IMG/VR virus record: IMGVR_UViG_3300026737_000001
DNA: 64,000 nucleotides
From: a virus
Taxonomy: Duplodnaviria > Heunggongvirae > Uroviricota > Caudoviricetes
Direction: 5' to 3' (one strand)
The notes under the pieces were generated by a model. It worked only from the letters and a program-made list of their open reading frames with translations, ran no database searches and was not told the origin of the DNA. Positions 26,964 through 52,663 of this stretch are shown piece by piece; the first letter of the stretch is position 1; every line of letters begins with the position of its first letter. The position numbers and the translations under genes are program-made.

Positions 26964-28085
26964 CTATCTTATACCTAAATCTAATTTGCCTTGTTTTAAA
27001 AGATTTTTACTAGCGTTTATATCCCTGTCGTGATTTGCACCACACTCACAAGTCCAAGTGCGAACTGATAAATCTTTGACTTTAGGATTTTTAGTACCAC
27101 ATTCTGAACAGGTTTGACTACTAGCAAAAAACCTATCTGCTTTGTGTAATATGCAATTATACCACTTGCTTTTGTATTCCAGCATTGTAGTAAACATATT
27201 CCAGGCACAATCAGAAATATGTTTTGCAAGTTTAGAATTTTTAAGCATACCTTTTACATTTAAGTCCTCTATGACTAAAAGTTGGTTCTCCTTTGTTAGA
27301 CTAGTTGACAGTTTATGCAAAAAGTCTTTACGAATATTTTTGATTTTTTCATGAACTTTAGCAATTTTCTTTTTAAGTTTATACCAATTGTTACTACCTT
27401 CTTCTTTACGAGCTAACCTTCTTTGTAATTTAGCAAGTTTATCTTGATATTTAGAAAGGTGCCTAGGATTTGAAATATGTTCACCATTAGAAGTAGTTAA
27501 AAAGTCTTTAATTCCTAAATCTAATCCTAATTCACATTGATTATCTTTAACAATAGTTACTAAGACTTGTTTAACATTAATTGATATATAATATTTACCT
27601 GCTCTAGATTTAGAAACTGTAACATTATTAATTTTACCTTTAACCTCTTTAGATTTAGCAAACTTAATCCAAGATAGTTTTGGTAGTTTAATCTTATTTT
27701 CTTTAATTTCAATATTTGTTGTACCACTAGGTCTAATGAATTTTTGTGTTCTATATGATAGCCTAGCTTTTCTTTTAGATTTAAACTTAGGATAATTATA
27801 TTTACCACTAAAGAAATTCTTAAAAGCTCTATCCAGGTCTTTAAGACTTTGCTGTAAAGCTATACTATCTACTTCTTTAAGCCACTCATATTCTTTTTTT
27901 AATTGAGGCAGTTGTCTGGAATATTTAGTATATGATTGATAATTTTCTTCTTTAGTTTTTGCTAAAAATTCGTTGTAAATGAATCTAGAACAACCAATAG
28001 TTTTATCAATTAATTCTTGTTGTTCTTGATTAGGATAAATTCTAAACTTATATGCTTTGTTAATTGGCTTAAATTTTTTAATCAT
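26964..28085 (-). CDS. tnpB: TnpB (IS605 OrfB-family RNA-guided nuclease/transposase accessory protein)
   Basis: N-terminal HTH 'YKFRIYPNQEQQELIDKTIGCSRFIYN', RuvC-like core, and C-terminal zinc finger 'CSECGTKNPKVKDLSVRTWTCECGANHDRDINASKN'. Confidence 0.85.
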   Translation of the reverse strand: MIKKFKPINKAYKFRIYPNQEQQELIDKTIGCSRFIYNEFLAKTKEENYQSYTKYSRQLPQLKKEYEWLKEVDSIALQQSLKDLDRAFKNFFSGKYNYPKFKSKRKARLSYRTQKFIRPSGTTNIEIKENKIKLPKLSWIKFAKSKEVKGKINNVTVSKSRAGKYYISINVKQVLVTIVKDNQCELGLDLGIKDFLTTSNGEHISNPRHLSKYQDKLAKLQRRLARKEEGSNNWYKLKKKIAKVHEKIKNIRKDFLHKLSTSLTKENQLLVIEDLNVKGMLKNSKLAKHISDCAWNMFTTMLEYKSKWYNCILHKADRFFASSQTCSECGTKNPKVKDLSVRTWTCECGANHDRDINASKNLLKQGKLDLGIR

Positions 28086-28474: not shown

Positions 28475-30154
28475 TTACTTTTTTTCCTGTGAACTCATTA
28501 CTGATTGTATCCATCTCCTCGTAGAAGCATTTTTTACAAAATCAACAAATAAAGGGTGTGGCCTCAAAGGTCTTGACTTAAACTCCGGATGAAACTGCAC
28601 ACCAACAAACCATCTGTGTTCTTTAAGCTCCATTGTTTCAACAAGCTTTCCGTCCGGTGATAGACCTGAGAATACAACCCCGTTAGCTTCAAATAACTTT
28701 CTGTAATCATTGTTAAACTCAAAGCGGTGACGATGCCTTTCTTTTAATTCTAAATGGTCGATGTAGGCGCTGTGAACTCTTGACTTTAAAGGCTTTGCTG
28801 TAAAATCATAAGAGCCAAGCCTCATTGTTCCGCCCTTGTTAACAACCTCTCTCTGCTCATTCATGAGGGTTATTACAGGGTTTTTAGTTTCACTGTCAAA
28901 CTCTAAGCTGTTGGCATCTTCTAGTCCTAACTCATTTCTGGCAAATTCAATAGCTGCAACCTGCATGCCAAGACAAATACCAAAGTAAGGGACCTTATTT
29001 TCTCTTGCATATTTAGCCGCCTTTATCTTGCCTTCAATGCCTCTCTCACCAAATCCACCAGGGACTAATATTCCATCATATCCTTTTAATGTTATTCTAA
29101 CTGCTTCATCACAGCTTAAATCTTCAAGCTCTTGAGAGTCAATAAATGTAATATCAACATCGAGATGATTTTTAAGACCTGCATGTATTAAAGCCTCTTT
29201 GATGCTGAGATATGCATCTTCGAGCTGTGTATATTTTCCCACAACTGCTATATTTACCTTTTCTTTTTTTTCTTGTAAATTTACAAGCATATGCCCCCAG
29301 TCATCTATATCTTGAGGATAACTCTGAAATGATTTAAAACCAAGTTTCTCCATTACCTTTTTAGCCATATCCTGACCTTCATATTTGAGAGGTATTTCAT
29401 AAATGTGCTCTACATCAACTGACTCAAATATTAATTCCTTGTCTATATCTCCAAATAAAGAAATCTTATCCCTTATTTCTTCAGGCATTTTATCTTTAAT
29501 TCTGCCGACTACAGCATCAGGCTGAACGCCAAGACTTCTAAGCTCCTTTAAGCTCTGCTGGGTAGGTTTTGATTTGTACTCTCCTACTTTATGCATGTAA
29601 GGAATTAATGTGCAGTGAACATGGAATGTGTTATCAAAACCTAAATCATGTCTTAACTGCCTTACAGCCTCCACAAAAGGGAAGCTTTCAATATCTCCTA
29701 CAGTGCCCCCGAGTTCAATTAGTATCACATCAGTCTTATCGTCTTCCGGCATGGTCATCCTGCGCTTTATCTCATCAGTGATATGAGGTATTACCTGTAT
29801 TGTCTTACCTAAGTATTTGCCTTTTCTTTCGTTATCTAAAACTTCCTGATAGATTTGACCTGTTGAGACAGAATTAATTCCAGAAAGCTCTATATCAATA
29901 AACCTTTCATAGTGGCCAAGGTCTAAATCAGTTTCTGCTCCATCATTGGTAACAAAAACCTCTCCGTGTTCTATAGGGTTCATTGTCCCAGCATCAACAT
30001 TTATATAGGGGTCAAATTTCTGAACCTTAATATTTAACCCTCTAGCTTTAAGTAACATTCCAAGCGATGCAGAAGTTAACCCCTTTCCTAATCCAGAGAC
30101 AACCCCTCCTGTCACGAATATATATTTAGTTTTCTTACTCACACTCATCAACAC
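28475..30154 (-). CDS. pyrG: CTP synthase
   Basis: Full-length 559 aa. 'KYIFVTGGVVSGLGKG' at the N-terminus, glutaminase-domain 'GICLGMQ' and 'GGTMRLG'. Confidence 0.9.
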   Translation of the reverse strand: MLMSVSKKTKYIFVTGGVVSGLGKGLTSASLGMLLKARGLNIKVQKFDPYINVDAGTMNPIEHGEVFVTNDGAETDLDLGHYERFIDIELSGINSVSTGQIYQEVLDNERKGKYLGKTIQVIPHITDEIKRRMTMPEDDKTDVILIELGGTVGDIESFPFVEAVRQLRHDLGFDNTFHVHCTLIPYMHKVGEYKSKPTQQSLKELRSLGVQPDAVVGRIKDKMPEEIRDKISLFGDIDKELIFESVDVEHIYEIPLKYEGQDMAKKVMEKLGFKSFQSYPQDIDDWGHMLVNLQEKKEKVNIAVVGKYTQLEDAYLSIKEALIHAGLKNHLDVDITFIDSQELEDLSCDEAVRITLKGYDGILVPGGFGERGIEGKIKAAKYARENKVPYFGICLGMQVAAIEFARNELGLEDANSLEFDSETKNPVITLMNEQREVVNKGGTMRLGSYDFTAKPLKSRVHSAYIDHLELKERHRHRFEFNNDYRKLFEANGVVFSGLSPDGKLVETMELKEHRWFVGVQFHPEFKSRPLRPHPLFVDFVKNASTRRWIQSVMSSQEKK

Positions 30155-38092: not shown

Positions 38093-38107
38093 TTTACCAC
38101 CCTCTTT

Positions 38108-39182
38108 CTAATTAGCTTTCTTAAAGAAATCTCCTTCAATCAATTTAACTTTATCAACCAGCATTGCATTACTTTTATCTTTTTTACCTTCAAGTTTTAA
38201 TTTAAAACCTTTTTGAAATAAGTCATGATTGGAGCGATATGTGTCCGGAAAAACTACAAGTTTAATCTTATTTTTATCTGTTTTAACTTTTGCAAAAGCC
38301 ATTAATTTATTTGACTTTCTGGTTTTAACCTCTTTAGATTCTGTAATTATGCCTTCCACCTCTAAGACCTCTCCGCTTTTAGCAAAATCCCATTCAGAAG
38401 GATAGGTTAAAGATAAACCGATTGTGTCCATTTCGAATTCAATAATTTCTTCTTTTGTGGGTTCTGGTTCGTCAAAAACTCCAGAACCTTCCTCATTTTT
38501 GAAGGCATCAAATAGTGACTGCCTCATCTGTCCAAACTCTTTAATAGTCTTGTAATCTACAAGTAATTGTTTTCTGTTTTTGCCGAATGAATCCATTGCC
38601 CCAGCTTTAATTAAAGATTCAAAAGCTGTCTTATTAACAACTCTTGTATCAACCTTCTGGTACATATCATCTAGGTCTTTAAACGGTCTTTGATTCATTA
38701 TTTCGGTGCTTGCTTTTTTACCTAAACCATCAATCGCATTTAAACCCAGTCTTATCTTCCCGTTAACAGCTGTAAAGCGCCCTTCTGACTCGTTAATGTC
38801 AGGAGGTAGTATATCTATCTTCTTTTTATAGCAGTCCGAGAAATAGTCCGTAATCGAGCTGTCAGAGCCACTCTTTGCTGCTTCAACACTCATGATAGCT
38901 GCATAGAACTCTGCCGGAAAATGGTATTTAAGGTAAGCAGTGGCATAAGATATTAATGCATAGCAAGCAGAATGTGATTTATTAAAGCCATAGCCGGCAA
39001 AATATTCGATTAATCTAAACATTTCATCAGCAAATTCTTCTGTGTGGCCATTTTCTTTAGCTCCTGCTTTAAACTTAACTTTCATTTTTTCTAATACTTT
39101 TATTTTCTTTTTTCCCATTCCACGCCTTAATATATCTGCCTCTCCCAGGCTGAAGTTAGCAATTATCTGTGCAGTTTTCATT
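38108..39182 (-). CDS. dnaE: DNA polymerase III alpha subunit DnaE, exon 3 (C-terminal part)
   Basis: '(V)MKTAQIIANFSLGEADILRRGMGKKK' corresponds to DnaE 'YQEQVMQIAQ...LGEADLLRRAMGKKK'. The codon is completed by splicing (see intron). Confidence 0.85.
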
Positions 39183-40758
39183 CAATTATGTTATCGCAAA
39201 AGCTTTTTATCTTCTGCTTCTATATCTGCTATCTTTACAAATATAGTTCGGCATACATTTTCACCTTATTTAAGGTGTCGAACACTCGTGGAGAGATTAT
39301 ATTTTACATATAAATGTAAGTTCACTCTCTATGCTCTACGGTATTAACAGATTTTTAGGTCTATTAATTACCTCGGTATTATCACATATAATATCCATTC
39401 TTTTTCTTTTTCTTGGTAGCCAAATATTAGCATCTTTGTACATGTATTTATATAGCTTTTTAGAAAATGATATACCACTTTGAAAGTAATATAGATTAGT
39501 ACTTTTATGGATTGTTTTATTGCTTTTTATTACCTTTTGTATAGATTTAAGCATTTTTTTATTTCCACAAAACCCACTTCTCTTACTTTTTTTGATGCAA
39601 GTTATGCCATCTCCATCAAAAAACCCTCTAATAAAGTGTCTATACATATTATCAGGTATTTGAAAGGGAAATGATTCTTTTCCCGTCTTATTAGGTATAA
39701 CACCATATTCAAATAATTTTTCAGTCATATGTCTTGATGTTAAGCTACATCTGCAACAGTAACCTTTTTTTGAATATCCAGAATTTTTACCAACATAAGG
39801 ATTAAGAGAACTTTCTAAGTGGCTTAAAAACCCATAAATAATCTCTTTGTCCTTTAAGGCTACACCTAATTTTATAGAATATTGACCATTATAGATAGAA
39901 GTGTTTCCATCAGCCATTAAAAAACCCAAAAAATAAGCTTTTTCTTCTTTGTTTATTTTATCAAAAAAATCTTCTTTTTTTATGCTATTCTCTAATCCTC
40001 TTTTTATATCAAAACCTTCTTTCTTTAACCATAATGAAATAGTGTTTCTATTAATACCTGTTTCAGTTGCTATTTCACATAAATATAATCCTGATTTATA
40101 AAGATTAACAACTCTTTTTTTATAAACATCTTTATATCCTATTTTATCCCCATGATTAAATTTTGAATTTTTTGTTAGTCCAGCATTTCTTAAATATTTA
40201 TACACTGTACCAACACTTATATTCAATAATTTTGATATTTCTTTTCCAAACTTACCTTCATTATAAAGGTCCATTATTTTTTTGATTTTATATTCACTTA
40301 TTTTTTCAGTTTTTTTAGATTTTTGTGGATTTTGTAAACTTATATCAGATTCATTAATCCATTTATAAATTGTACTTCTGCAAGGCATAATTTCCATTTT
40401 AGAAATATCAGTAACAGAAATGCCATCGCCATACATGTTTAATGCTTTTATTTTGCGTTGACTACTTTTCATCTTTATCACCTTCTACATATTGAAAGAG
40501 TATATACCTAACCATTTCAGAAAAATTAATTCCTTTTTTGTCAGCTATTTTTTGAATGTCTTCTTCCAGCTGTTCCGGTAAATAAATATTTCTTCTTTTC
40601 ATTTTTATCATCTCCAACGTGTGGTATTTGTATCACCTTGCATACATTATTATAACACACATTGAATCATTTTTCAAATTATGGATATTTAGATAGTGGC
40701 TTCACCGATTTTGCTCGATAATAATCTAGCTTATTTCTAAGCTGGACGGCAATTTCTT
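39183..40758 (-). other. group I-like intron in dnaE (intron 2), 1576 nt, carrying a LAGLIDADG HEG
   Basis: Exon 2 ends '...CAGGU' (U before the 5' splice site). The intron ends '...AATTG' (terminal G). Joining gives CAG GTA ATG = Q-V-M, restoring the conserved DnaE YQEQVM. A stop codon follows the exon 2 junction in frame. Confidence 0.7.
39336..40481 (-). CDS. LAGLIDADG homing endonuclease (double-motif) with N-terminal HTH modules, intron-encoded
   Basis: 'YFLGFLMADGNTS' and 'FIRGFFDGDGITC'. Confidence 0.8.
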   Translation of the reverse strand: MIKMKSSQRKIKALNMYGDGISVTDISKMEIMPCRSTIYKWINESDISLQNPQKSKKTEKISEYKIKKIMDLYNEGKFGKEISKLLNISVGTVYKYLRNAGLTKNSKFNHGDKIGYKDVYKKRVVNLYKSGLYLCEIATETGINRNTISLWLKKEGFDIKRGLENSIKKEDFFDKINKEEKAYFLGFLMADGNTSIYNGQYSIKLGVALKDKEIIYGFLSHLESSLNPYVGKNSGYSKKGYCCRCSLTSRHMTEKLFEYGVIPNKTGKESFPFQIPDNMYRHFIRGFFDGDGITCIKKSKRSGFCGNKKMLKSIQKVIKSNKTIHKSTNLYYFQSGISFSKKLYKYMYKDANIWLPRKRKRMDIICDNTEVINRPKNLLIP

Positions 40759-42710
40759 ACCTGTTCCTGGTATACTAGGTAACCGTATGTTTCCTCTAAT
40801 TCCTTTTTTAAACTTTCGTGTGGATATTCTACTTTTTCATTACCGTGCATTCTGTCGAAATATTTTTCCACAATACCAGCTTCAAGTGGTCCCGGGCGAC
40901 CGAGAGCAAGTATAGCAATTATATGCTCGAACTTTGTAGGTTTCATTTTCTTTAACAGCCTTTTAAATAGTTGTGATTCTACCTGAAAAACCCCGTTGGT
41001 ATCAGCCTTCTGATAGATGTTTTTATATACATCTTTATCATCAAGAGGTAAATCCCAAATGTTTTGTACTGTAGGCTTATACTCTAAGCTATCATAATCT
41101 TTTCTGTTCTTGATAAACTTAATAGCCTCACCTATGATAACAACAGTCTTTAACCCTAAGAAATCCATCTTGAGCAAACCTAAATCTTCGCTATCGTGCA
41201 TCTCTGTCTGAGTTACATATGTTATCTCACCAGTCTGGCTGTTTTTGGTTCGTGCTAAAGGTGTGTAATCATCAACAGGCTCTGGAGTAATAACAACTGC
41301 TGAGGCATGTGTACCTAACTGTCTAGGCTTACCTTCTAGCTTTTGAGCTATATCGAATAGTTTTGGATACTGTTCAGCATACATCTTAAGTTCTTTACTT
41401 TCTTCCAGTGCTTCCTTGATTGAAATACCTGGGGTATCGGGAAATGCCTTTGATATCTCTTTATTCATTAGATTGTAATCATATCCTAATACTCGGCCTA
41501 CATCTTTAACAGCTGATTTAGCACCTAGTGTACCAAAGTTACAGATACTTGCTACATTTTCTTCTCCGTATTTGTCGATTACATACTGGATAACTTTTCC
41601 TCTATTTCCAAAATCTATATCAATATCAGGCATAGCAGTTCTTTCAGGATTTAAGAATCTTTCAAACAGCAGTCCATACTTAACAGGGTCTAAGGCTGTG
41701 ATGCCTAAAAGATAGGATAGAAGTGAGCCTGCTGCAGACCCTCGACCAGGACCAACAATGATGTTATTATCTTTAGCCCACTGAACATAATCTTCAACAA
41801 TTAAAAAGTAGGCAGGATACCCCTTCATATTTATAACCTCAAGCTCTGTATCAAGCCGTCTGGCGTATTTATCCATATCAATGTCTTTTTCTACAGCCAA
41901 CTCAAAAAGCTTCTTAAAGGCCCTTTCTTCAAGGTATGACTCAAGTGTATAACCTTCAGGAACTTCGAACTTAGGAAGGAGTAAATTACCTAAATCAAGC
42001 TCGACTGTATCACATTTATCGGCAATTTTTACTGTATTCTCAACTGCACTATCTCTGGCATCTATAAAATCAGACTCTACACTTTTTGCAAAAAGCTGAC
42101 TTTTTATCTCATCTTCACCCTTAAAATAGTATGAATCTCCATGAAATCTAAATCTGTCATTATCTTCAACTTTTGCCCCTGTTTGAATACATAGCATAAC
42201 GTCATGAGCTTCTATACTGTCCTTTTCTAGATAGTGCATATCTGATGTAGCTACAAGCTCTATATCTAATTTTCTAGCTAAATTTGCAAGCTTTGAGTTC
42301 ATTACGTACTGCTCTGATACATCGTTGGCCATAATCTCTATATAGAAATCATCACCAAAAAGTTTTTTATATTTTAGAGCTATTTCTTCTGCTCTTTCAT
42401 TGTTGTTATTCTCTAAGGCTCTTGGTATCTCTCCTGCAAGGCAGGCAGAACTTACTATAAGTCCTTCAGAATGCTCTTTTAAAATTTCAAAATCTATTCT
42501 TGGTTTATAATAAAAACCTTCTGTATTTGACTTACTCACCATCTTAAAAATATTATCCAATCCTTTTTTATTTTTAGCAAGGATTATAAGGTGGTGTCTT
42601 TTACCTTCTTTATCATGCATGTCATTAGCTACATATACTTCAATTCCAAATATATGTTTAATTTCTTCTTCTTTGGCTGCTTTATAAAGCTCTACGAAAT
42701 TATGGATACT
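40759..42710 (-). CDS. dnaE: DNA polymerase III alpha subunit DnaE, exon 2 (PHP remainder plus polymerase core)
   Basis: 'GPGRGSAAGSLLSYLLGIT', 'FLGLKT', ends 'GYLVYQEQV'. Confidence 0.85.
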
Positions 42711-43840
42711 CAATTGTGTTATCCTACAAGTTTTTTACCATGTAGTTCTTGCAGTTCATTTCCTGCAAGTTCAGCATACCTTTTGCCCACCAGCATTACC
42801 TGTGAGGACAGGAGTCTCTTGGAAAAATTATATTCTTTAATACAAATTAAAGTTTCATTTTCTATGCGTTGCCCCTGACTAATATTTTAAAATTAGCCTT
42901 CGGTTCGGATTGGCTTCTCAGCTTTCCCGCTTAATACTCCTGTAATAATTCTAAACATTCCTGTTTAGAACGGCAAATTTATCATGTTTTCTCTTTAAAT
43001 ATATATTAGCATCTTTATATAGGTAGTCTTTAATTTTCAAAACAGCAAGCCTTCCTGACTTTCTTATTTTGTACATATCAGATTTATGAAATTTTGGTTT
43101 TTGCATAAATATATCATTTTTTTCAAACTCATCAGATATTTCATTTAGCATATCTTTATAGCCCATTATATAAAATTCACAATTTAAAGAGTTCTTGTGA
43201 TGGTTATCATTTCTTATTGAATATGATATACATCCATCACCGTCAAAGTAACCTCTTATAAAATGATTCATATATTCTTCTTTTATATTTGGTAATGAGT
43301 TTGTGTTTTTTACACCTAGTTTTATTAAGTCTTGATATATTTTTTTATTGGTAAAAGACAGAGTATATTGTCCAATATTACTATATCTATCCTTTCTTGG
43401 TTTAATGTAATATAATGGACCTGCATAACCAACTTCATTTTTTACATCTAAAAGAAGTTTTTTATCATCTTCTTTTAAACCAATAGAGGCCACATAACTT
43501 CTTCCTGAAATATATACGCTTCCATCTGAATAAAATAATCCTAATATATAGGCTTTCTCTTTAGAATTTATTTCAGAAAAATATTTTTGATTTATTTTAT
43601 ATTGTGGTTGACCTCCTGGATTTCTTGATTTTATATTATACTCTTTGAAAGTCGTTTGTATTTTTGAAGCACTTACATTAAAATATTTTCCTATATCTTT
43701 ATGACTTAAACCATCATTATAAAGATTTTTCATTTCATTAATTTGTTTTGTAGAAAAAATAATTTTTTTAGTAATTTTTATCACCCTCTTTAGCTTAAAG
43801 GTGCTAATATATTTATAATTATAACATGATATTAATGTTT
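42711..43840 (-). other. group I-like intron in dnaE (intron 1), 1130 nt, carrying a LAGLIDADG HEG
   Basis: Exon 1 ends '...GAC CAC GGU' and the intron ends '...CACAATTG'. Joining gives 'TDHG|SIHNFVELYKAAK', collinear without gaps with Firmicute DnaE 'TDHGNMFGAIEFYKAAK'. Confidence 0.65.
42951..43784 (-). CDS. LAGLIDADG homing endonuclease, intron-encoded (paralog of 39336..40481)
   Basis: 'YILGLFYSDGSVY' and 'FIRGYFDGDGCIS'. The N-terminal HTH resembles the other HEG. Confidence 0.8.
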   Translation of the reverse strand: MIKITKKIIFSTKQINEMKNLYNDGLSHKDIGKYFNVSASKIQTTFKEYNIKSRNPGGQPQYKINQKYFSEINSKEKAYILGLFYSDGSVYISGRSYVASIGLKEDDKKLLLDVKNEVGYAGPLYYIKPRKDRYSNIGQYTLSFTNKKIYQDLIKLGVKNTNSLPNIKEEYMNHFIRGYFDGDGCISYSIRNDNHHKNSLNCEFYIMGYKDMLNEISDEFEKNDIFMQKPKFHKSDMYKIRKSGRLAVLKIKDYLYKDANIYLKRKHDKFAVLNRNV

Positions 43841-43966
43841 ACCGTGGTCTGTTATAGCAACAGTTTTTTGACCCATATCTTTTGCTTTCTTCACAATATC
43901 CTTTGGTGAATCAAAGCCGTCCAAAAAAGAGTAGTAACTGTGGTTGTGTAAATTAACATAAGACAA
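43841..43966 (-). CDS. dnaE: DNA polymerase III alpha subunit DnaE, exon 1 (PHP N-terminus)
   Basis: Not in the ORF track. TTG start after AAGGAGG. '(M)SYVNLHNHSYYSFLDGFDSPKDIVKKAKDMGQKTVAITDHG' is the PHP-domain signature. Confidence 0.7.
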
Positions 43967-44131
43967 ATAACTTCCTCCTTTCGTTTCGTTAAGTTTATTA
44001 TATCATACTTCACTTGATTATTAAAGAAAAAGGCGCACCATTAAAGCAACGCCTTCTTTTATTATATAACTATACCTGCTAACAACCCAGCTATTAATAA
44101 AGCATTAAATAGTCTTAACATTATTCTTCAC

Positions 44132-44485
44132 CTACTTGTGCCAAGGCTTAAAGTCTTTAACTTTATTAATTAACTCTTTATTCCATTTACCCCCAAAATT
44201 AATTGCTCTATCATCAATTTGCACTATAGCTGGTACTTTATCTCTAACTACTTTATCTACTTCAATATCATATTTATCTAAATAATCTTCGATAGCTTCA
44301 ATTCCGCCTTCTTGGTGGCACCTGGAAGAATGGACAACTACTTCATAATCTTTCCTTAATTCCTGAATAGCTTCGTTTACACCTTCAACCGGAGAATCTG
44401 GTATATTAGTAACTCCTTGCCAACCAGACTTATAGCTGTGAATAACACCGTCAAAATCTAAAATAATTGTTTTCTTGCCTGACAT
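44132..44485 (-). CDS. HAD-superfamily phosphatase-like protein (paralog of 24617..24973)
   Basis: 'KKTIILDFDGVIH' motif I. Confidence 0.4.
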   Translation of the reverse strand: MSGKKTIILDFDGVIHSYKSGWQGVTNIPDSPVEGVNEAIQELRKDYEVVVHSSRCHQEGGIEAIEDYLDKYDIEVDKVVRDKVPAIVQIDDRAINFGGKWNKELINKVKDFKPWHK

Positions 44486-44800
44486 TTAATTTGCCTCCTC
44501 TACTTTCTCATAAGTTTTATGGAATATATCAGGTTTACAAGGATAAAATTCGCCGTTTACGCCTTTGATAATATAGTCTCCAACATTAGCCCTCATTACC
44601 CCTTCTAAAGTAGGTATGACAATTTCCCCTAATTTTTTGTTGCTGTAATCAATATAAGAATCCTTACAATCTTTCATAAAAGTTTCAGTAATTAAACTAT
44701 TAGCCCCATTCCATTCAACAGCCTCAATTACAACTGGTTTTTTACGATATTTTGCCATTTTATCCCCCTTAAAATTGCTTTGAAAGTGTAAAACTAACAT
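44486..44800 (-). CDS. hypothetical protein
   Basis: ORF. Confidence 0.3.
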   Translation of the reverse strand: MLVLHFQSNFKGDKMAKYRKKPVVIEAVEWNGANSLITETFMKDCKDSYIDYSNKKLGEIVIPTLEGVMRANVGDYIIKGVNGEFYPCKPDIFHKTYEKVEEAN

Positions 44801-44874
44801 TATTTGGAGTCTTACAATCCTGCTTTATCCTTAAATGGCCTAAAGGTAGTTTGCCTTCAACGCCATATACCTTT

Positions 44875-45513
44875 TTAACGCCCTCTACATAGCAATAGTG
44901 TAGCTTTTCCATAACTATAATAAGGAACTCCATCATCTATTAAATCATAATCGTCTCTTTCTGATATGATTGCCCATGCATCTTCGTTTTCTATATGGTA
45001 TCTAACACCAACCTTTTTAGCTTGTAGTTTACCTCTGGATATTTTATTAACTATCCCTTGGTTGGTTACTCCTATCAACATTGCAAGTTCATTTGCAGAT
45101 AAATCTCTGCCTCTGTATAATTTTATTCTTGTCTCTGCAAGCGTTATTAAAAATCCAATCCGGGAGTTTAAAAGACCCCTGTTGGTACCTTTCTGAACAA
45201 AGTATTTAGAAACAATATTTACCTGAGCATCCTCTTTTAATTCGTTTATTATTCCAGTTATTTCAGGAATATAATCATACTGTCCCTTTATAAAGTAAAA
45301 TAGTTTTTTTATTTCTTTAGCAAAAGGAAAAGGAAAATCAATTTTTTTATTCTCTATTGGACAGAAAAGTTCCACTGGTTCTTTGTTCACTTCTATGTCT
45401 TTTGCGTACTTAAGTTCAAGTTGGATTAATTCACGTAAATTGTTTTCTATATCAGATATAATTTTATTATAAAAACTTTTTCCTTTGAAATCTTTAATAC
45501 TGTATTCATTCAT
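44875..45513 (-). CDS. hypothetical protein with C-terminal HTH
   Basis: 'LAMLIGVTNQGIVNKISRGKLQA'. Confidence 0.35.
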   Translation of the reverse strand: MNEYSIKDFKGKSFYNKIISDIENNLRELIQLELKYAKDIEVNKEPVELFCPIENKKIDFPFPFAKEIKKLFYFIKGQYDYIPEITGIINELKEDAQVNIVSKYFVQKGTNRGLLNSRIGFLITLAETRIKLYRGRDLSANELAMLIGVTNQGIVNKISRGKLQAKKVGVRYHIENEDAWAIISERDDYDLIDDGVPYYSYGKATLLLCRGR

Positions 45514-45610: not shown

Positions 45611-46150
45611 TTATATGTGAATTTTTTCTTTTAACATCACTTCTAATTCTCTTTTTGCAATTTCTTTTTCATCTTTTTGCAAATTGTTTTTTAAGCAAAA
45701 TTCAAAGTCTATATTTGAGTTTTTAATAAATAATGCTGATTTATAAATACACTTCCAATCTTTACCTCCTGTTATAACAACGTTCTTGTGGTAGTTTAAA
45801 AAACTGTTCTTTAAAACTAGATATATTTTATCAACTAGGTTCTCATTTGTTATTTTGTATATTTTTGAAACTTTAACCCCATTTGTATATAGTTTTACAA
45901 CTATATTTTTATGATTATTTTGCAAATATTTCAAAAATTGAACGAGGTCAGTTTGAAGCGTTGCCTCTCCGCCTCTTATGGTAATTTCCTCTAAATTTTT
46001 ATAATTTATATCTTCTTTATTAAAATTTTCTTTTTTTATTTTTGGAACTAGATGCAAATCCTTACAATCTGCACACCTTAAGTTACATCCCTGAACATAG
46101 ATTGTTAACTTCTTACCGTCCTCTGAATATTCCTTCTTATAAATATTCAT
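45611..46150 (-). CDS. small radical SAM activase-like protein (NrdG/QueE-like)
   Basis: 'DGKKLTIYVQGCNLRCADC' and 'IRGGEATLQ'. Confidence 0.45.
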   Translation of the reverse strand: MNIYKKEYSEDGKKLTIYVQGCNLRCADCKDLHLVPKIKKENFNKEDINYKNLEEITIRGGEATLQTDLVQFLKYLQNNHKNIVVKLYTNGVKVSKIYKITNENLVDKIYLVLKNSFLNYHKNVVITGGKDWKCIYKSALFIKNSNIDFEFCLKNNLQKDEKEIAKRELEVMLKEKIHI

Positions 46151-46199: not shown

Positions 46200-47387
46200 T
46201 TATTTTTTATATTTTTCTTTTATTAAAAATGAGACCTGTATCCCGATTCCTATTAATGCTGCAAGTCCTACACCGCTAAATTTATAAACTGTTATTCCAC
46301 TTAGTCCAAAAACTATCATCGTAGAAGCTATAAATGTATTCTTTGGACTTGTGAAATCGACTTTATTTGAAACAAAAGTTTTAAAGCCTAGAGTTGCTAT
46401 ATTACCAAAAAGAATAATCATAACTCCTCCAACAACAGCTGTTGGTATTGACTGCAGAAAAGCTGCTAATACACCTACAAAGCTAAATATAATTGCAAAT
46501 ATACCTGCATTTCTTGTAACTTTTGGGTCTCTTATCTTTAATAGACTAACTGCTGATGTTCCTTCTGAGTAAGTTGTATTTGGTACAGAGCCTACAAAAG
46601 AAAGCATTGTGCCTATTCCATCAATTAACATCGTCCTGTGCATCCCTGGTGACTTATAATACTTATTACCAGTTGCTTCACTTACTGCAAATACATCACC
46701 AAAATGCTCTATTGTTGGAGCTAAGGCAAATGGCAGTATGTAAATTGCTGCGCTTAAATTAAATCTTGGGAGTGTAAATTCAGGCATGCTTACTAGTGGT
46801 AGAGAAACAAATGTTACCTCTCCTAGAAGCAAAGCTGATATATATCCTGTTAAAATAGCTATCAAAACTGAATATAATCTTGTTACTCCTTCTGTAAACA
46901 TCATAAAATATCCTGCTGTAGATAATGTTATAATAGCTAAAAGCCAATTACCTGAAGCCATATCTATACCGGTATCTATCAGGGTCAACCCTATCAGCAT
47001 AATCATTGTTCCTGAGATTACTGGAGGGAAAAGTTTTTCTGAGATGAAGTCACTGCCTGTTTTTTTAATTACAAATGAAAATAAAACTTTCATAATTCCC
47101 GCAACACCTAATGCAAAGAAAACAGATGGCATATCCCATCTATCCTGTATATAAATTATTGGTGCTATATAGGCAAATGATGAGCCTAGAAAAATTATTG
47201 GTGCTCCATATTCACCTCTACCAAAATAATGCATGATAAGAGTCGATATACCTGCTGTAAATAAAACAATAGATGTTGAGATACCCGTCAAAAGTGGTAC
47301 CAAAATCGTAGCGCCAAAGCAGACTACAAGCATCTGTAAACCTAAAAGCCATGTGTTATTTCCAATATTGAAATTCTCTGATTTCAT
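46200..47387 (-). CDS. NCS2-family nucleobase (uracil/xanthine) permease
   Basis: N-terminus 'LQMLVVCFGATILVPLLTG...LFTAGISTLIMH...IFLGSSFAYIAPII' parallels UraA/PyrP. Twelve or more TM segments. Confidence 0.6.
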   Translation of the reverse strand: MKSENFNIGNNTWLLGLQMLVVCFGATILVPLLTGISTSIVLFTAGISTLIMHYFGRGEYGAPIIFLGSSFAYIAPIIYIQDRWDMPSVFFALGVAGIMKVLFSFVIKKTGSDFISEKLFPPVISGTMIMLIGLTLIDTGIDMASGNWLLAIITLSTAGYFMMFTEGVTRLYSVLIAILTGYISALLLGEVTFVSLPLVSMPEFTLPRFNLSAAIYILPFALAPTIEHFGDVFAVSEATGNKYYKSPGMHRTMLIDGIGTMLSFVGSVPNTTYSEGTSAVSLLKIRDPKVTRNAGIFAIIFSFVGVLAAFLQSIPTAVVGGVMIILFGNIATLGFKTFVSNKVDFTSPKNTFIASTMIVFGLSGITVYKFSGVGLAALIGIGIQVSFLIKEKYKK

Positions 47388-47702: not shown

Positions 47703-47875
47703 TTAATACCTCCCCCTTTAAGAGATATTTACAGTACTTTATCAAATGTTTTTCTGTCTTTCCACTCTTCTTTTTTTCCTTTATTCCAATGAGAGATAGG
47801 TGTTAAAAACCCAACAACTCTGGAATAAACTTCACATCTAGTTCTTTTGCTTTCCATAATTACCACCTCCTTTCT

Positions 47876-48592
47876 TTAATTTCTTATTCTTACATTATCA
47901 ATATACTCTTCAGCAATGCTTTTAAATTCCTTTAACTTTTTTTCACTAAAACCATTTTTGCCACAGAGTTCTTTATTATAAGTAGAATCACCTTTGAAAT
48001 TCTGGATAAAATACCAGTCAGAATTTATTATCTGAGAGGCGATTTCTCTAATGTCCTCACTTTCATGCATTCCTGGTACTACTGTGGTTCTGATTTCATA
48101 CTGAACATCATATTTTTCTTTGGCCTGATATATATTATATAAAGAGCGTTTAATCTTATCTAAATTAATCTTGCCTCCTAATGAGCCGTATCTCTCATAT
48201 GGCATTTTAAAATCCATTGCTATATAATCTATAAGACCAGAAGACGCAAGGTATAAAAGTTTTTTAGGATAGGAACCGTTAGTATCAATCTTAACTTTTA
48301 ATCCCATAGTTTTAACTTTTTCAAGGAATAATTTTAAATCATCAATATCCTGCATTAAGGGCTCTCCACCAGTAATAGTAACTCCATCTATCTTTCCTTT
48401 TCTTTCGTTTAGGAACATTAAAATTTCATCTTCGTTAATTAAATTTTCTTTGTCTTTTATATCTTCACTTATTAATGATGGGTTGTGGCAGTAAGGACAT
48501 CGTAAATTACAACCCTGAGTAAATAAGATTGTAGAAATATGTTCTGGATAATCCATCAAAGAAGTCTTTTGTATTCCTGCAAATTTAATCAT
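47876..48592 (-). CDS. nrdG: glycyl-radical enzyme activating protein (anaerobic RNR activase NrdG-like)
   Basis: 'ILFTQGCNLRCPYCHNP' and 'TITGGEPLMQ'. Confidence 0.55.
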   Translation of the reverse strand: MIKFAGIQKTSLMDYPEHISTILFTQGCNLRCPYCHNPSLISEDIKDKENLINEDEILMFLNERKGKIDGVTITGGEPLMQDIDDLKLFLEKVKTMGLKVKIDTNGSYPKKLLYLASSGLIDYIAMDFKMPYERYGSLGGKINLDKIKRSLYNIYQAKEKYDVQYEIRTTVVPGMHESEDIREIASQIINSDWYFIQNFKGDSTYNKELCGKNGFSEKKLKEFKSIAEEYIDNVRIRN

Positions 48593-49198: not shown

Positions 49199-49618
49199 TT
49201 AAATTTCTAATTCATTTTCTAAAATAGTTCTTGTCTTATCGGTTAATTTAATTTTTTCTTTATTATTTAAGTAATACTCTTTGGCTGTGTCACCAAATTT
49301 CAAACTCATAGCCTCCCAGTCAACTACCATTTGTTGAATATATTTTAGTGGTATCTCCATAGGTTTTCCCTGTGGGCCTATCCAGTGATTCCAATGGTGA
49401 GGATTATTATAATAGTGGTGTCTCCATGCCATCTCAAATCGGTGCTTGTATTTTTCTTTATCTTTATAAAAATATCCTGCATAAGCCCAAAATTCGCTAC
49501 CAGTTAATTTAGATAAATCATGGGTAAAAGCATGAACGAACATACCCTTACCCATTGCAATTTTAAAAACATTCCATTTGTGTTCTAAAACATAAAGTAA
49601 ATATTTTAAAATATACAT
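49199..49618 (-). CDS. hypothetical protein
   Basis: ORF. Confidence 0.3.
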   Translation of the reverse strand: MYILKYLLYVLEHKWNVFKIAMGKGMFVHAFTHDLSKLTGSEFWAYAGYFYKDKEKYKHRFEMAWRHHYYNNPHHWNHWIGPQGKPMEIPLKYIQQMVVDWEAMSLKFGDTAKEYYLNNKEKIKLTDKTRTILENELEI

Positions 49619-49621
49619 TTA

Positions 49622-52600
49622 CTAACCCTCATATCCGTTTTCAGCATCACACTTAGGACAGAATTCGTGTTCTCCTGGCAGATACCCATGTATTGGACAA
49701 ATACTAAAAGTAGGAGTAATAGAGTAATAAGGAAGTTCATAATTTTCAGCAACTCTTTTAACAAACTTTTTGGTAGCCTCTATTCCAGGCATTCTCTCTC
49801 CTAGAAATAAATGTAAAACTGTTCCTCCTGTATAATTTTTCTGAAGTTCATCCTGCCAATCTAAAGCTTCAAAAGGGTCGTCTGTAGCCCCTACAGGTAG
49901 CTGAGTTGAATTAGTGTAATACGGGTCAGCATCTTCTGTATAAACCCTTTTATCATTAGCAAAAACAGCTTCTTCTTTCCCAAACTTATCAAGGTCTGAT
50001 TTGGCCAATCTATAGCTTGTTCCTTCAGCTGGAGTAGCTTCAAGGTTAAAAAGGTCACTTGTTTCTTCCTGGTACTCCACCATTCTTTCTTTCATTTTGT
50101 ACATAACCCATTTAGTAAATTTAATAGCTTCATGTTCTGTCATATCTTTTCCTAAGAAATTCATAACAGATTCATTCATTCCATTTAATCCGATTGTATT
50201 AAAGTGATTTTTCCAGTACTCTCCAAAACGTTCCTTAATACTTCTTAGATAAAACTTAGAATAAGGGTAAAGACCTGCATCTGTTAACTCTTCTAAAATT
50301 CTTCTTTTAATTTCTAAACTTTCTTTTGCAATATCCATTAATTCATAGACTCTCTCTAAATAATCATCAGTATTTTCTGCTAAAAGTCCAATTCTGGGCA
50401 TATTAAGTGTTACTACACCGATAGAGCCTGTCATAGGCGATGAGCCGAATAAACCTCCTCCTCGCTTTCTTAATTGCCGATTATCAAGGCGCAGCCTGCA
50501 GTTATGAGTCAAGATTCCAGTTGTGCCAACCGTAAACATTGGTTCTCCATCTTTGACTTCAAAACAATAAGCCGTTTGTTTTTCTTTTAGTTTTTCAACT
50601 TTATCTATTTTCATCCACAGTTTTGAGTCTTTTTTAAACCAAACGTCGCCATAACTATTTCTATTTAATTTGTAAAATAAAACAGCATAATTTGGATTAT
50701 CTCCTAGTCTTCCATCACTTTTTTTTCTGTCATCAGTATAAACATTGGTTGTTGTTCCCAGAGTAGCAGCTAACATATTTAAGCTTTCTACCATTTTTTC
50801 TGATGATGTATAAATTCTATTTTTGTTTCCTCCATCAGTTTCATAATAGCCATCAAATAATCCTGTTCTAAAGTGTTTGCTCATTTCAAAAACATTTGCT
50901 TTGAAGTATTTATTTAATGCATTATCCCCATCAACAAAACTTTCAATCATTGATTTTACTGCTGGATTATATGTTGAAAGTTTAACTACATTATTTTTTT
51001 CTTCTTTTTCGGTAAATTTAGCCCCAAAAAGTTTAGTCAGTATTTCTTTTAAATTTTCAAGCACTGTTAGCTTGGTATTATTATTTAAAGAAAAAACAGT
51101 TCCTGTATTTTTATCACAGCTTCCGTCTCCTGCAAAAGCTCCTATTAAATAGCCAAGGTCATAAGTTCCTCCTTCGCCTTTAAAACTTGTTAAGCTATAA
51201 GGTAGATAATAACCTTCTTTTAAGTCTTTTCCTGACATTTCTTCAATATCTTTATTTTTATTTTTGATAACAAAATTTAAATGTTCTTCAGTCATCTTTA
51301 TCTCATGCCCGTTAACCAATCTTACATTTATCATATTTTGATTTTCAAACTTATTGAATCGACCTTCTATAAATTTACCATCAGAATAGACTAATATATC
51401 ATCATTATCTTTAGTGTCATAATATGTGTGGTTAATTTGGGAGTATCTTACATTGTCATCACCTGTTTTAACTAATACCTTTTCTTTTCCGTCAAGTGGA
51501 CACATTGAGCGAGCGTCTTCAGCTTTCATATCGGAATTGACGAAGTTCGCAAAATATGGAATTCCGTACTTGGCTGTCATTTCCCAAACAGGATTTAATA
51601 TTTCGTTATCCCAATCAAAATCTGGAGTAATGTTATAAGTAGGAATAGGGAAAGAAAATACTCTTCCTTTTGAATCTCCCGCCAGCATAACCTCAGCAAA
51701 AGCCTTGTTAATCATGTCCATTTCCTTCTGGAAATTTTTAAGCGGCATGTCATAAAGCATTTCGCCACCAATAATAGCTGGGTCCTCTGCCATATTTGAT
51801 GGACAAACTAAATCCATAGTTAAATTTGTAAAAGGACTTTGAAATCCAACCCGTGTCGGTACATTTAAATTAAAAATAAATTCCTGCATAGCCTGATAAA
51901 CTTCATCATAATCAAGTCCATCATAAGATACAAACGGTGCAAGATAAGTATCGAAACTTGAAAAAGCTTGAGCTCCAGAACTCTCTCCCTGTAAAGTATA
52001 TAAAAAATTAACCATTTGTCCTAAAGCAGTTCTGAAGTGTTTTGGTGGTGCCGACTCTATCTTGGTTGACACTCCTGAAAAACCTTCCAATAATAAATCC
52101 TGAAGGTCCCATCCACAACAGTAATTACTTAAATTAGCAAGGTCGTGAATGTGCAAATCTCCACTTACATGCTTTTCTTTAATGTGTTTAGGGTAAATTT
52201 CATTTAACCAATAATGGCCTGTCACCTCGCTTGCTATATGATTATTTAAACCCTGAAGACTATAACCCATATTGGAGTTCTCATTAACTTTCCAATTGCT
52301 TAAATCAAGGTAATTATTAACTGTATCATTTATTCCATTGTATAGTTTTTGAGCATCTCTATACTTTTCATGCTGCTTTCTATATAATATATAGTTTTTT
52401 GCTATTTCATAATGTCTGTTTTCCATTAATTCATACTCAACAATATCCTGTAAAGTCTCAACATTAACAGAGTTTAATCCAGAACTAATCATTCCACTTA
52501 TATTATCTTCTATTTCTTCAACAATATTATTTGCAACAAAATTCCAAAAATCTTCACCTTTTTTTTCTGCTGTTGCCTTCGCTGCTTTATAAACTGCATC

Positions 52601-52663
52601 TTTAATTTTTTTATTTTTATATTCTACTTTTCTTCCGTCTCTTTTAATTACATAAAACGACAT
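49622..52663 (-). CDS. nrdD: anaerobic ribonucleoside-triphosphate reductase NrdD (class III), intein-containing
   Basis: N-terminal ATP-cone, C-terminal zinc ribbon and glycyl region '...CPIHGYL...CPKCD'. 1013 aa, of which 334 aa are intein. Confidence 0.8.
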   Translation of the reverse strand: MSFYVIKRDGRKVEYKNKKIKDAVYKAAKATAEKKGEDFWNFVANNIVEEIEDNISGMISSGLNSVNVETLQDIVEYELMENRHYEIAKNYILYRKQHEKYRDAQKLYNGINDTVNNYLDLSNWKVNENSNMGYSLQGLNNHIASEVTGHYWLNEIYPKHIKEKHVSGDLHIHDLANLSNYCCGWDLQDLLLEGFSGVSTKIESAPPKHFRTALGQMVNFLYTLQGESSGAQAFSSFDTYLAPFVSYDGLDYDEVYQAMQEFIFNLNVPTRVGFQSPFTNLTMDLVCPSNMAEDPAIIGGEMLYDMPLKNFQKEMDMINKAFAEVMLAGDSKGRVFSFPIPTYNITPDFDWDNEILNPVWEMTAKYGIPYFANFVNSDMKAEDARSMCPLDGKEKVLVKTGDDNVRYSQINHTYYDTKDNDDILVYSDGKFIEGRFNKFENQNMINVRLVNGHEIKMTEEHLNFVIKNKNKDIEEMSGKDLKEGYYLPYSLTSFKGEGGTYDLGYLIGAFAGDGSCDKNTGTVFSLNNNTKLTVLENLKEILTKLFGAKFTEKEEKNNVVKLSTYNPAVKSMIESFVDGDNALNKYFKANVFEMSKHFRTGLFDGYYETDGGNKNRIYTSSEKMVESLNMLAATLGTTTNVYTDDRKKSDGRLGDNPNYAVLFYKLNRNSYGDVWFKKDSKLWMKIDKVEKLKEKQTAYCFEVKDGEPMFTVGTTGILTHNCRLRLDNRQLRKRGGGLFGSSPMTGSIGVVTLNMPRIGLLAENTDDYLERVYELMDIAKESLEIKRRILEELTDAGLYPYSKFYLRSIKERFGEYWKNHFNTIGLNGMNESVMNFLGKDMTEHEAIKFTKWVMYKMKERMVEYQEETSDLFNLEATPAEGTSYRLAKSDLDKFGKEEAVFANDKRVYTEDADPYYTNSTQLPVGATDDPFEALDWQDELQKNYTGGTVLHLFLGERMPGIEATKKFVKRVAENYELPYYSITPTFSICPIHGYLPGEHEFCPKCDAENGYEG
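50501..51502 (-). mobile_element. intein with LAGLIDADG homing-endonuclease domain inside NrdD (aa 388-721)
   Basis: Starts with Cys in 'ARSM|CPLDGKEKVLV' and ends 'GILTHN|C'. LAGLIDADG motifs 'YLIGAFAGDGS' and 'FRTGLFDGYYETDGG'. Extein junction 'ARSM-CRLRLD'. Confidence 0.7.

Follow-up and report, generated by a model that had tools for sequence, protein, structure and literature searches.

Class 3 inteins have no nucleophile at their N terminus; the prototype, MP-Be DnaB, starts with proline (Pro1) and needs a cysteine at position 4 of block F (F:4) (PMC2807308). Inteins in the anaerobic ribonucleotide reductase (RNR) NrdD of phages are also known, that of Clostridium phage c-st having been reported as a putative intein (PMC3653736). 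Here we describe an intein in the nrdD gene of IMG/VR virus record IMGVR_UViG_3300026737_000001 (Caudoviricetes), of which a stretch of 64,000 nucleotides, hereafter the window, was analysed. The intein starts with proline, carries the F:4 Cys and belongs to a class 3-type Pro1 group in NrdD that has so far been undescribed. From its sequence, it is probably a mobile element lodged in the codons of the NrdD finger loop, which would splice by the less common class 3 route, through an internal cysteine, to give a 680-residue NrdD and home into empty alleles. A literature search found no paper linking class 3 inteins with anaerobic ribonucleotide reductase or NrdD, which, as subscription journals are poorly covered, is weak evidence of novelty.

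Several described systems can be set beside this one. The class 3 helicase inteins (mycobacteriophage Bethlehem DnaB, Msm DnaBi1 and Stx2-phage DnaB) resemble it in having a residue 1 that is not a nucleophile, the F:4 Cys, Thr at G:5, His at B:10, a terminal His-Asn and, often, LAGLIDADG motifs. They differ from it at B:12, where the window intein has Asn (Asn or Gln across its subfamily), at the first C-extein residue (+1), where it has Cys and not Ser or Thr, and in their host, which is an ATPase P-loop rather than the radical loop of an RNR; the window's family, moreover, includes members that start with Cys (Cys1). The AceL NrdHF split intein likewise lacks the B:12 Trp and sits in an RNR-related host, and for this 'MCT' variant (Met for Trp at B:12) class 3 splicing has been proven biochemically (PMC7891396). 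In contrast to the window intein it occurs naturally in split form and without an endonuclease, the two conserved His are missing, and its host is NrdHF. A similar case is the Bvi IcmO intein, which is class 3 and has Cys at +1, and in which the order of F:4 Cys first and +1 Cys second is obligatory although both are cysteines (PMC5222942); it differs from the window's in being a mini-intein, in having the WCT triplet complete and in its host, a type IV secretion ATPase. The inteins of Clostridium phages c-st and D-1873 share the host, the insertion point before the Cys of CRL, the YCFE(M/V) and THN/C motifs (the slash marks a junction) and the LAGLIDADG domain, and are full-length homologs of the window intein (30% identity, E 6e-32), though they begin with Cys1 (ASC/CFDG...) and conserve the block B Thr/Ser, whereas the window intein has Pro1 and position B:7 is relaxed in its Pro1 group.

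The open reading frame (ORF) that carries the intein (Table 1) is a class III ribonucleotide reductase NrdD. The NCBIfam model NF006126 ('ribonucleoside triphosphate reductase') matches its exteins at 972 bits (cutoff 548) and TIGR02487 at 492 bits (cutoff 326), and the exteins are 65–69% identical to NrdD of the Halanaerobiales (Orenia, Halanaerobium, Halothermothrix). The Pfam NRDD match falls in two stretches, with Intein_splicing and LAGLIDADG_3 matches between them; the N-terminal match of every NrdD model, and with it the first NRDD stretch, ends at residue 388. An insert of 333 codons would be open by chance with P about 7e-13 in a sequence of 32.5% GC.

By its profile matches and its predicted structure the insert is an intein, made of a Hint splicing domain and a LAGLIDADG endonuclease domain. 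Pfam Intein_splicing scores 39 bits on it (cutoff 35.8), and TIGR01443, which describes the C-terminal region of inteins, covers residues 698–722 with 20.2 bits (cutoff 15.6). Modelled by AlphaFold2 together with 8 residues on either side, the insert reached a predicted local distance difference test (pLDDT) of 85.1 and a predicted template modelling score (pTM) of 0.86, and its Foldseek neighbours in the PDB are endonuclease-containing inteins, namely TliVMA (E 3e-20, TM-score 0.77), PhoVMA, PI-PfuI and PI-SceI, followed by I-DmoI. The acidic residue is kept in both LAGLIDADG motifs (GDGS and TDGGN). A first-pass annotation of the window had proposed an in-frame LAGLIDADG intein beside CRLRL in NrdD, a finger-loop motif, and on this Pfam, NCBIfam, the family profile and the structure model agree; the internal LAGLIDADG motifs that it mentioned are two (residues 503–515 and 598–613), and the end that it gave, ...GILTHN followed by Cys, can be read directly in the translation.

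Where the intein begins was settled by comparison with an uninterrupted allele. Homologs were found by searching with the spliced NrdD, and motifs were counted over the 120 best. The window's own NrdD (P0018) recurs on 14 public contigs from at least six samples, and an intein-free NrdD of 680 residues (P0019, 87% identical) lies on contig L006, where the genes follow the order of the window: thymidylate kinase, RuvC, sigma factor, a 120-residue ORF, NrdD and DUF5662. Since the gene order matches, we read L006 as a related phage whose intein site is empty. Alignment of the two alleles as DNA leaves a single gap of 999 nucleotides, flanked by TGT (Cys388) and TGC (Cys722). The window has ATG TGT / CCA CTT GAC ... 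CAT AAC / TGC AGG where the empty allele has ATG TGT / TGC AGA (in full, ...GCCCGCTCAATGTGT/TGCAGACTTAGGCTTGAT...), and the gap cannot slide because the insert's terminal bases are not the same as those beside the gap. The intein is Pro389–Asn721, 333 residues or 999 nucleotides, and Cys388 is residue -1 of the extein. Splicing would give an NrdD of 680 residues with the junction 'ARSMCCRLRLDN', that is ...ARSMC-CRLRLDN.... The sequence SMCCR is present in at least 106 of the 120 close homologs and SMCR in none; four have SMC/P...THN/CRL, the window's among them, and in nine another intein, which starts with Cys1, is inserted one residue upstream and precedes CC (RSM/CLFPEE...NITHN/CCRL). Window Pro389 aligns without gaps to the Cys1 of the c-st-type inteins, which read ...SC/CFDG.... 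The intein N-terminal profile TIGR01445 matches weakly (residues 391–462 against profile positions 3–80, 15 bits for a cutoff of 24.5), and its position 1 extrapolates to residue 389; the Pfam Intein_splicing match begins at residue 437 and is uninformative on this boundary. None of 50,697 phage records matched the locus in a near-identity DNA search. We also considered whether codon 389 had been misread in sequencing or had mutated recently, and rejected both, Pro1 being found in 46 diverged sequences and the allele on 14 contigs.

The first-pass annotation had placed the start at Cys388, giving an intein of 334 residues with a block A-like beginning and a product of 679 residues with the junction ARSMCRLRLDN. 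Cysteine is the commonest first residue of inteins, one adjoins the insert here, and the CPLDGKEKVLV that it opens is loosely block A-like; the element would then be a class 1 intein that splices through an N-S acyl shift at Met387-Cys388 and leaves ...SM-CRLRL.... We regard this as very improbable. The 999-nucleotide insert leaves out the TGT codon, the product would be one residue short in the motif that nearly all the homologs just counted keep intact, and the M-x-C spacing kept from T4 (MGCR) to Thermotoga maritima (SCCR) would be destroyed. Relatives of the Cys1 type read C/CF..., which puts Pro389 at position 1, in agreement with TIGR01445. True Cys1 inteins one residue upstream precede CC, so a Cys1 intein at Cys388 would need CC after the insert, where the window has one C. 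Cys388 is the last residue of the N-extein, and in place of the Cys, Ser or Thr of a class 1 block A nucleophile the intein has Pro389.

To gather relatives of the window intein, 1.84 billion representative proteins were searched with a profile, which returned 3530 (526 at E<=1e-10 and 149 at E<=1e-30), and residues were tabulated for the best 150 together with the window's own. Among these, 46 start with Pro and 72 with Cys, and all 46 Pro1 members lie in NrdD, as C/P...THN/C. Within the Pro1 group B:10 is His in 46/46, as it is in all but one of the sequences outside it; G:5–G:7 is Thr-His-Asn in 46/46, a motif mostly retained in the Cys1 members; and the Cys at +1 is invariant too. F:4 is Cys in every Pro1 member, whereas 10 of the 72 Cys1 members have another residue there, in seven of them the Asp of the class 1 form ('VYDFEM'). 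At B:12 the Pro1 members have Asn (25) or Gln (21) and never Trp, the Cys1 members being variable, and B:7, classically Thr or Ser, is relaxed to G, S, T or D in the Pro1 group while 71 of the 72 Cys1 members retain Thr/Ser. Three forms thus coexist at one NrdD site, two with Cys1, which differ in having Asp or Cys at F:4, and one with Pro1 and the F:4 Cys. Full-length homologs at this same site, with 26–30% identity and E down to 6e-32, come from Clostridium phages c-st and D-1873, a human faecal phage contig and a Desulfovibrio phage. Mean pairwise identity among the Pro1 members is 31%, which argues that the Pro1 state is old and has been maintained. Two further whole-intein homologs, P0007 (335 residues) and P0251 (360 residues), are free-standing and have no F:4 Cys, no terminal His-Asn and no NrdD flanks; they are probably endonucleases that derive from inteins and have escaped from their host gene or decayed.

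Changes of Cys1 to a residue that is not a nucleophile abolish the splicing of class 1 inteins. The Pro1 copies could accordingly be decayed inteins in which the loss of Cys1 ended splicing and disabled nrdD, leaving an endonuclease vehicle or an element heading for loss, and P0007 and P0251 attest that clearly decayed members of the family exist. Those relatives have lost the junction residues, however, whereas Pro1, the B:10 His, the F:4 Cys, Thr-His-Asn and the +1 Cys are held invariant over 46 members as diverged as these. The frame of 1013 codons is intact in a genome of 32.5% GC, the same allele recurs across the contigs and samples given above, and the phage retains the adjacent nrdG activase and an ORF for the glycyl-radical tail. 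Decay seems to us improbable on these grounds.

The original signature of class 3 comprises a residue 1 that is not a nucleophile and the triplet WCT, for B:12 Trp, F:4 Cys and G:5 Thr (PMC2807308), and the window intein has Pro389, Cys700 and Thr719 at the first, third and fourth of these positions. The later, operational definition, no Cys at the N end and a Cys at C2:4 (the same as F:4) (PMC7891396), describes it through Pro389 and Cys700; among the 1702 class 3 inteins surveyed there, the NCT triplet appears three times, without comment, and QCT is absent from the list (Table S1). A phmmer search of PDB sequences with the intein alone gave only noise, and the family profile was needed for matches; the best of these is 6riz (gp41-1_WCT, which carries an engineered class 3 triplet), with the family Cys on F:4 and THN on THN. 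A similar picture emerges from the closest relative outside NrdD among phages, the intein in the DnaB helicase of Stx2 phages (L013). This is a canonical class 3 intein, at the P-loop site GMGK/AMALSEG, with NHLW, CLCIMV and IVTHN/T. Aligned by hhalign (97% probability, E 6e-11, 255 columns), the family and this intein have His on His, Asn on Trp, the F:4 Cys on Cys and THN on THN. Judged by these alignments, the window intein has a class 3-type signature in which Asn replaces the usual Trp. The covariation of F:4, B:7 and B:12 with residue 1 across the family (Fisher p of 0.006, 9e-11 and 9e-12 between Pro1 and Cys1 members) speaks for the class 3 route too.

Several observations weigh against the class 3 route. 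The B:12 Trp of the original signature is missing, Asn463 being found instead, and mutation of this Trp stops splicing in three tested class 3 inteins. Residue +1 is Cys722 where class 3 inteins usually have Ser or Thr, and though that rule is not absolute, Cys at +1 is rare in the class. The Fisher tests of the signature positions are uncorrected for shared ancestry, and in neighbour-joining trees the state of residue 1 changes only about 3–6 times, which makes for few independent events.

The absence of an N-terminal nucleophile, the Cys at +1, the presence of block B Thr458 and His461 in the window's copy and the lack of the B:12 Trp, which activates the N-junction in class 3 inteins, would also suit a class 2 (KlbA-like) intein, in which Cys722 attacks the Cys388-Pro389 bond directly and Cys700 has a structural or regulatory role only. 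Class 2 inteins are, however, defined by the lack of the F:4 Cys signature (PMC2807308), and this Cys is invariant in the Pro1 members, yet dispensable in some of their Cys1 relatives, where Asp replaces it; the closest homolog outside NrdD is, besides, a WCT class 3 intein. We therefore think class 2 unlikely, if less so than decay, and take the class 3 route as the most fitting.

Since residue 1 is proline, the classical acyl shift onto Cys1 or Ser1 is impossible. By the class 3 route Cys700, aided by His461, would attack the Cys388-Pro389 bond to form an internal branched thioester, and would hand the N-extein on to Cys722. Cyclisation of Asn721 would then release the intein, and an S-to-N shift would restore a native peptide bond in a 680-residue NrdD with the loop ...SMC-CRLRL.... 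The freed intein would cut intein-less nrdD alleles, for instance that of L006, at TGT/TGC and copy itself in. We infer the order of these chemical steps, the splicing itself and the endonuclease activity from the conserved residues. The intein is present in one and absent from another of two closely related phage alleles, as would suit a homing element that is active or was so until recently.

Catalysis by NrdD is started by a Cys on the finger loop, a Met on the same loop pairs with a Cys on the bottom face, and the tip of the loop, 288-MGCR-291 in T4 NrdD, is equivalent to 328-SCCR-331 in T. maritima (PMC4493059). Mapping the motif in this way matches Met387 to T4 Met288, Cys388 to Gly289 and Cys722 to Cys290, so that the predicted +1 nucleophile of the intein corresponds to the catalytic radical cysteine. 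The M-x-C-R motif of the loop is regained, as SMCCR, only once Pro389–Asn721 is removed. When a 123-residue peptide across the junction was compared with the solved NrdDs, the finger-loop motif was aligned to none of them. NrdD would be inactive until spliced, because Cys722 would later serve as the catalytic radical cysteine.

Table 1. Coordinates of the nrdD intein, its host gene and neighbouring features in the window.
Feature	Position	Strand	Evidence or remark
nrdD precursor ORF, 1013 residues including the intein	49622..52663	minus	Stop codon 49622..49624; Pfam NRDD 581 bits and ATP-cone; NF006126 972 bits
N-extein, residues 1–388, C-terminal ...ARSMC	51500..52663	minus	ATP-cone at residues 4–99; NrdD models and empty-site allele
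Cys388 (TGT), extein residue -1, first Cys of the finger-loop 'CC'	51500..51502	minus	Aligned with T4 NrdD Gly289
Intein, 333 residues, Pro389–Asn721, predicted Hint splicing domain with LAGLIDADG homing endonuclease domain inside	50501..51499	minus	
Pro389 (CCA), intein residue 1, not a nucleophile	51497..51499	minus	Gapless alignment to Cys1 of c-st-type inteins; Pro in 46/46 of the subfamily
Block B core TEEHLN, residues 458–463: Thr458 = B:7, His461 = B:10, Asn463 = B:12	51275..51292	minus	Hidden Markov model and hhalign alignments to 6riz and the Stx2 DnaB intein
LAGLIDADG motif 1, LGYLIGAFAGDGS, residues 503–515	51119..51157	minus	GDGS invariant in the family; profile match to I-DmoI and PI-SceI
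LAGLIDADG motif 2, FRTGLFDGYYETDGGN, residues 598–613	50825..50872	minus	TDGGN invariant in the family
Cys700, block F position 4 ('AYCFEV'), proposed first nucleophile	50564..50566	minus	Aligned with the F:4 Cys of 6riz and the Stx2 DnaB intein
Block G Thr719-His720-Asn721 (G:5–G:7), Asn721 last intein residue	50501..50509	minus	TIGR01443; invariant in the family
Cys722 (TGC), predicted +1 nucleophile of the C-extein	50498..50500	minus	Counterpart of T4 NrdD Cys290 in 288-MGCR-291
C-extein, residues 722–1013	49625..50500	minus	Stops soon after the Zn ribbon (...CPIHGY...CPKCDAENGYEG)
DUF5662 gene	49199..49618	minus	Directly after nrdD in intein-containing and intein-free alleles; overlaps the nrdD stop codon region
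nrdG-like radical-SAM activase, 238 residues, between nrdD body and tail ORF	47876..48592	minus	Pfam Radical_SAM and Fer4_12; kept in all P0018 loci
Separate NrdD glycyl-radical tail ORF, 45 residues (42 from ATG), '...CEVYSRVVGFLTPISHWNKGKKEEW...'	47729..47866	minus	Pfam NRDD positions 531–562 of 562, 36.6 bits; NF006126 positions 649–682 of 684
dnaE (Pol III alpha) in three pieces	43832..43966, 40737..42713, 38108..39181 (span 38108..43966)	minus	
Clear LAGLIDADG ORF between dnaE pieces	42951..43784		
Helix-turn-helix-rich ORF between dnaE pieces	39336..40481		LAGLIDADG match below threshold only

The NrdD of the window is in two pieces. The polypeptide itself lacks a glycyl-radical loop, its ORF ending about 8 residues past the Zn ribbon, and the glycyl-radical motif (CEVYSRVVGFL...) is carried by a small ORF after nrdG, which matches the last 32–34 positions of the NrdD models. 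The same order of nrdD, nrdG and small tail is found on the chromosome of Orenia metallireducens (L014 6759..6902), which suggests that a two-piece class III RNR is common to the clade. The tail ORF would be functionally part of the NrdD enzyme, to judge from its sequence, and might act as a replaceable radical-bearing peptide. Our literature search, in which subscription journals were again poorly covered, found no account of an NrdD whose glycyl-radical domain forms a polypeptide of its own.

Other inteins are found in the same protein. The 'site a' intein of Halanaerobiales NrdD, in the closest bacterial relatives of the extein (P0051, P0059, P0066, P0075, P0089, P0095, P0105, P0107 and P0136), interrupts the same finger loop and ends in THN, though it lies one residue upstream (RSM/C...THN/CCRL), has Cys1 as its first residue (CLFPEE...) and in most cases is a mini-intein of 175–195 residues. 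Two adjacent points of the finger loop therefore hold different inteins. Close homologs of NrdD have inteins at no fewer than four other sites: GIPYF/C...SHN/SNFVNSD (P0060, P0065 and P0077), NPLTG/C...CGN/S(V/I)GVVT (P0073 and P0124), YTGG/C...IHN/TVLHGF (P0109, P0119 and P0125) and RVGFQ/C...TGN/TPFTN (P0126). In this clade NrdD is an intein hotspot.

The neighbourhood of nrdD looks phage-like, with genes for thymidylate kinase, RuvC, a sigma factor, guanylate kinase, NrdG, a split DnaE and RecJ. The first-pass annotation had also counted two introns with homing endonuclease genes in dnaE as elements of the same nuclease family. The claim is only partly borne out: of the two ORFs between the dnaE pieces one is a clear LAGLIDADG ORF and the other has only its sub-threshold hit, and the Rfam group I intron models found nothing in the window at the gathering score and nothing in 38000–45000 at E<=1. 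Just downstream of the nrdD-nrdG cluster lie a second small radical-SAM / 4Fe-4S protein of 179 residues (45611..46150, minus strand) and a gene of the xanthine/uracil permease family (46200..47387, minus strand), unusual nucleotide-metabolism cargo for a phage-like region. An ORF of the TnpB / IS605 OrfB type (26964..28085, minus strand; HTH_OrfB_IS605, OrfB_IS605 and the Cas12f1-like TNB) adjoins a CTP synthase gene (28475..30154).

Set against one another, the inteins at this one finger-loop site of NrdD may be a natural series that bridges class 1 and class 3 splicing, a reading that we offer tentatively and doubt somewhat more than we believe. Going by their residues, the members with Cys1 and Asp at F:4 would be classical class 1 inteins, those with Cys1 and Cys at F:4 would have two candidate nucleophiles, and those with Pro1 and Cys at F:4 would be of class 3 type without the Trp. 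If mechanisms match signatures, class 3 may arise from class 1, or revert to it, stepwise through a doubly competent intermediate. Neighbour-joining trees with the Stx2 DnaB class 3 intein as outgroup gave, over 50 bootstraps, Cys as the state at the root of the ingroup in 24, Pro in 13 and an ambiguous state in 13. Such a series runs against a published argument that direct divergence of class 3 from class 1 is implausible (PMC7664689). Another possibility, by analogy with the class 3 Msm DnaBi1 intein, for which redox-gated splicing has been shown (PMC6195587), is that the cysteines at -1, F:4 and +1, clustered at the active centre, could make splicing redox-gated, with NrdD, an oxygen-sensitive enzyme, maturing only under reducing conditions.

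Under the rule that an intein starts with Cys, both this intein and the spliced protein come out one residue wrong, and the residue concerned lies in an essential enzyme's catalytic loop; automated intein callers would repeat the error. More broadly, the 46 Pro1 members among the best 150 representatives make up a large class 3-type group outside the ATPase and helicase hosts in which class 3 was defined, and their presence beside Cys1 relatives at the same site provides a testable system for the evolution of the class 3 mechanism. Because the residue that serves the intein as +1 nucleophile is the counterpart of the radical cysteine, the activity of the ribonucleotide reductase would be strictly dependent on splicing.

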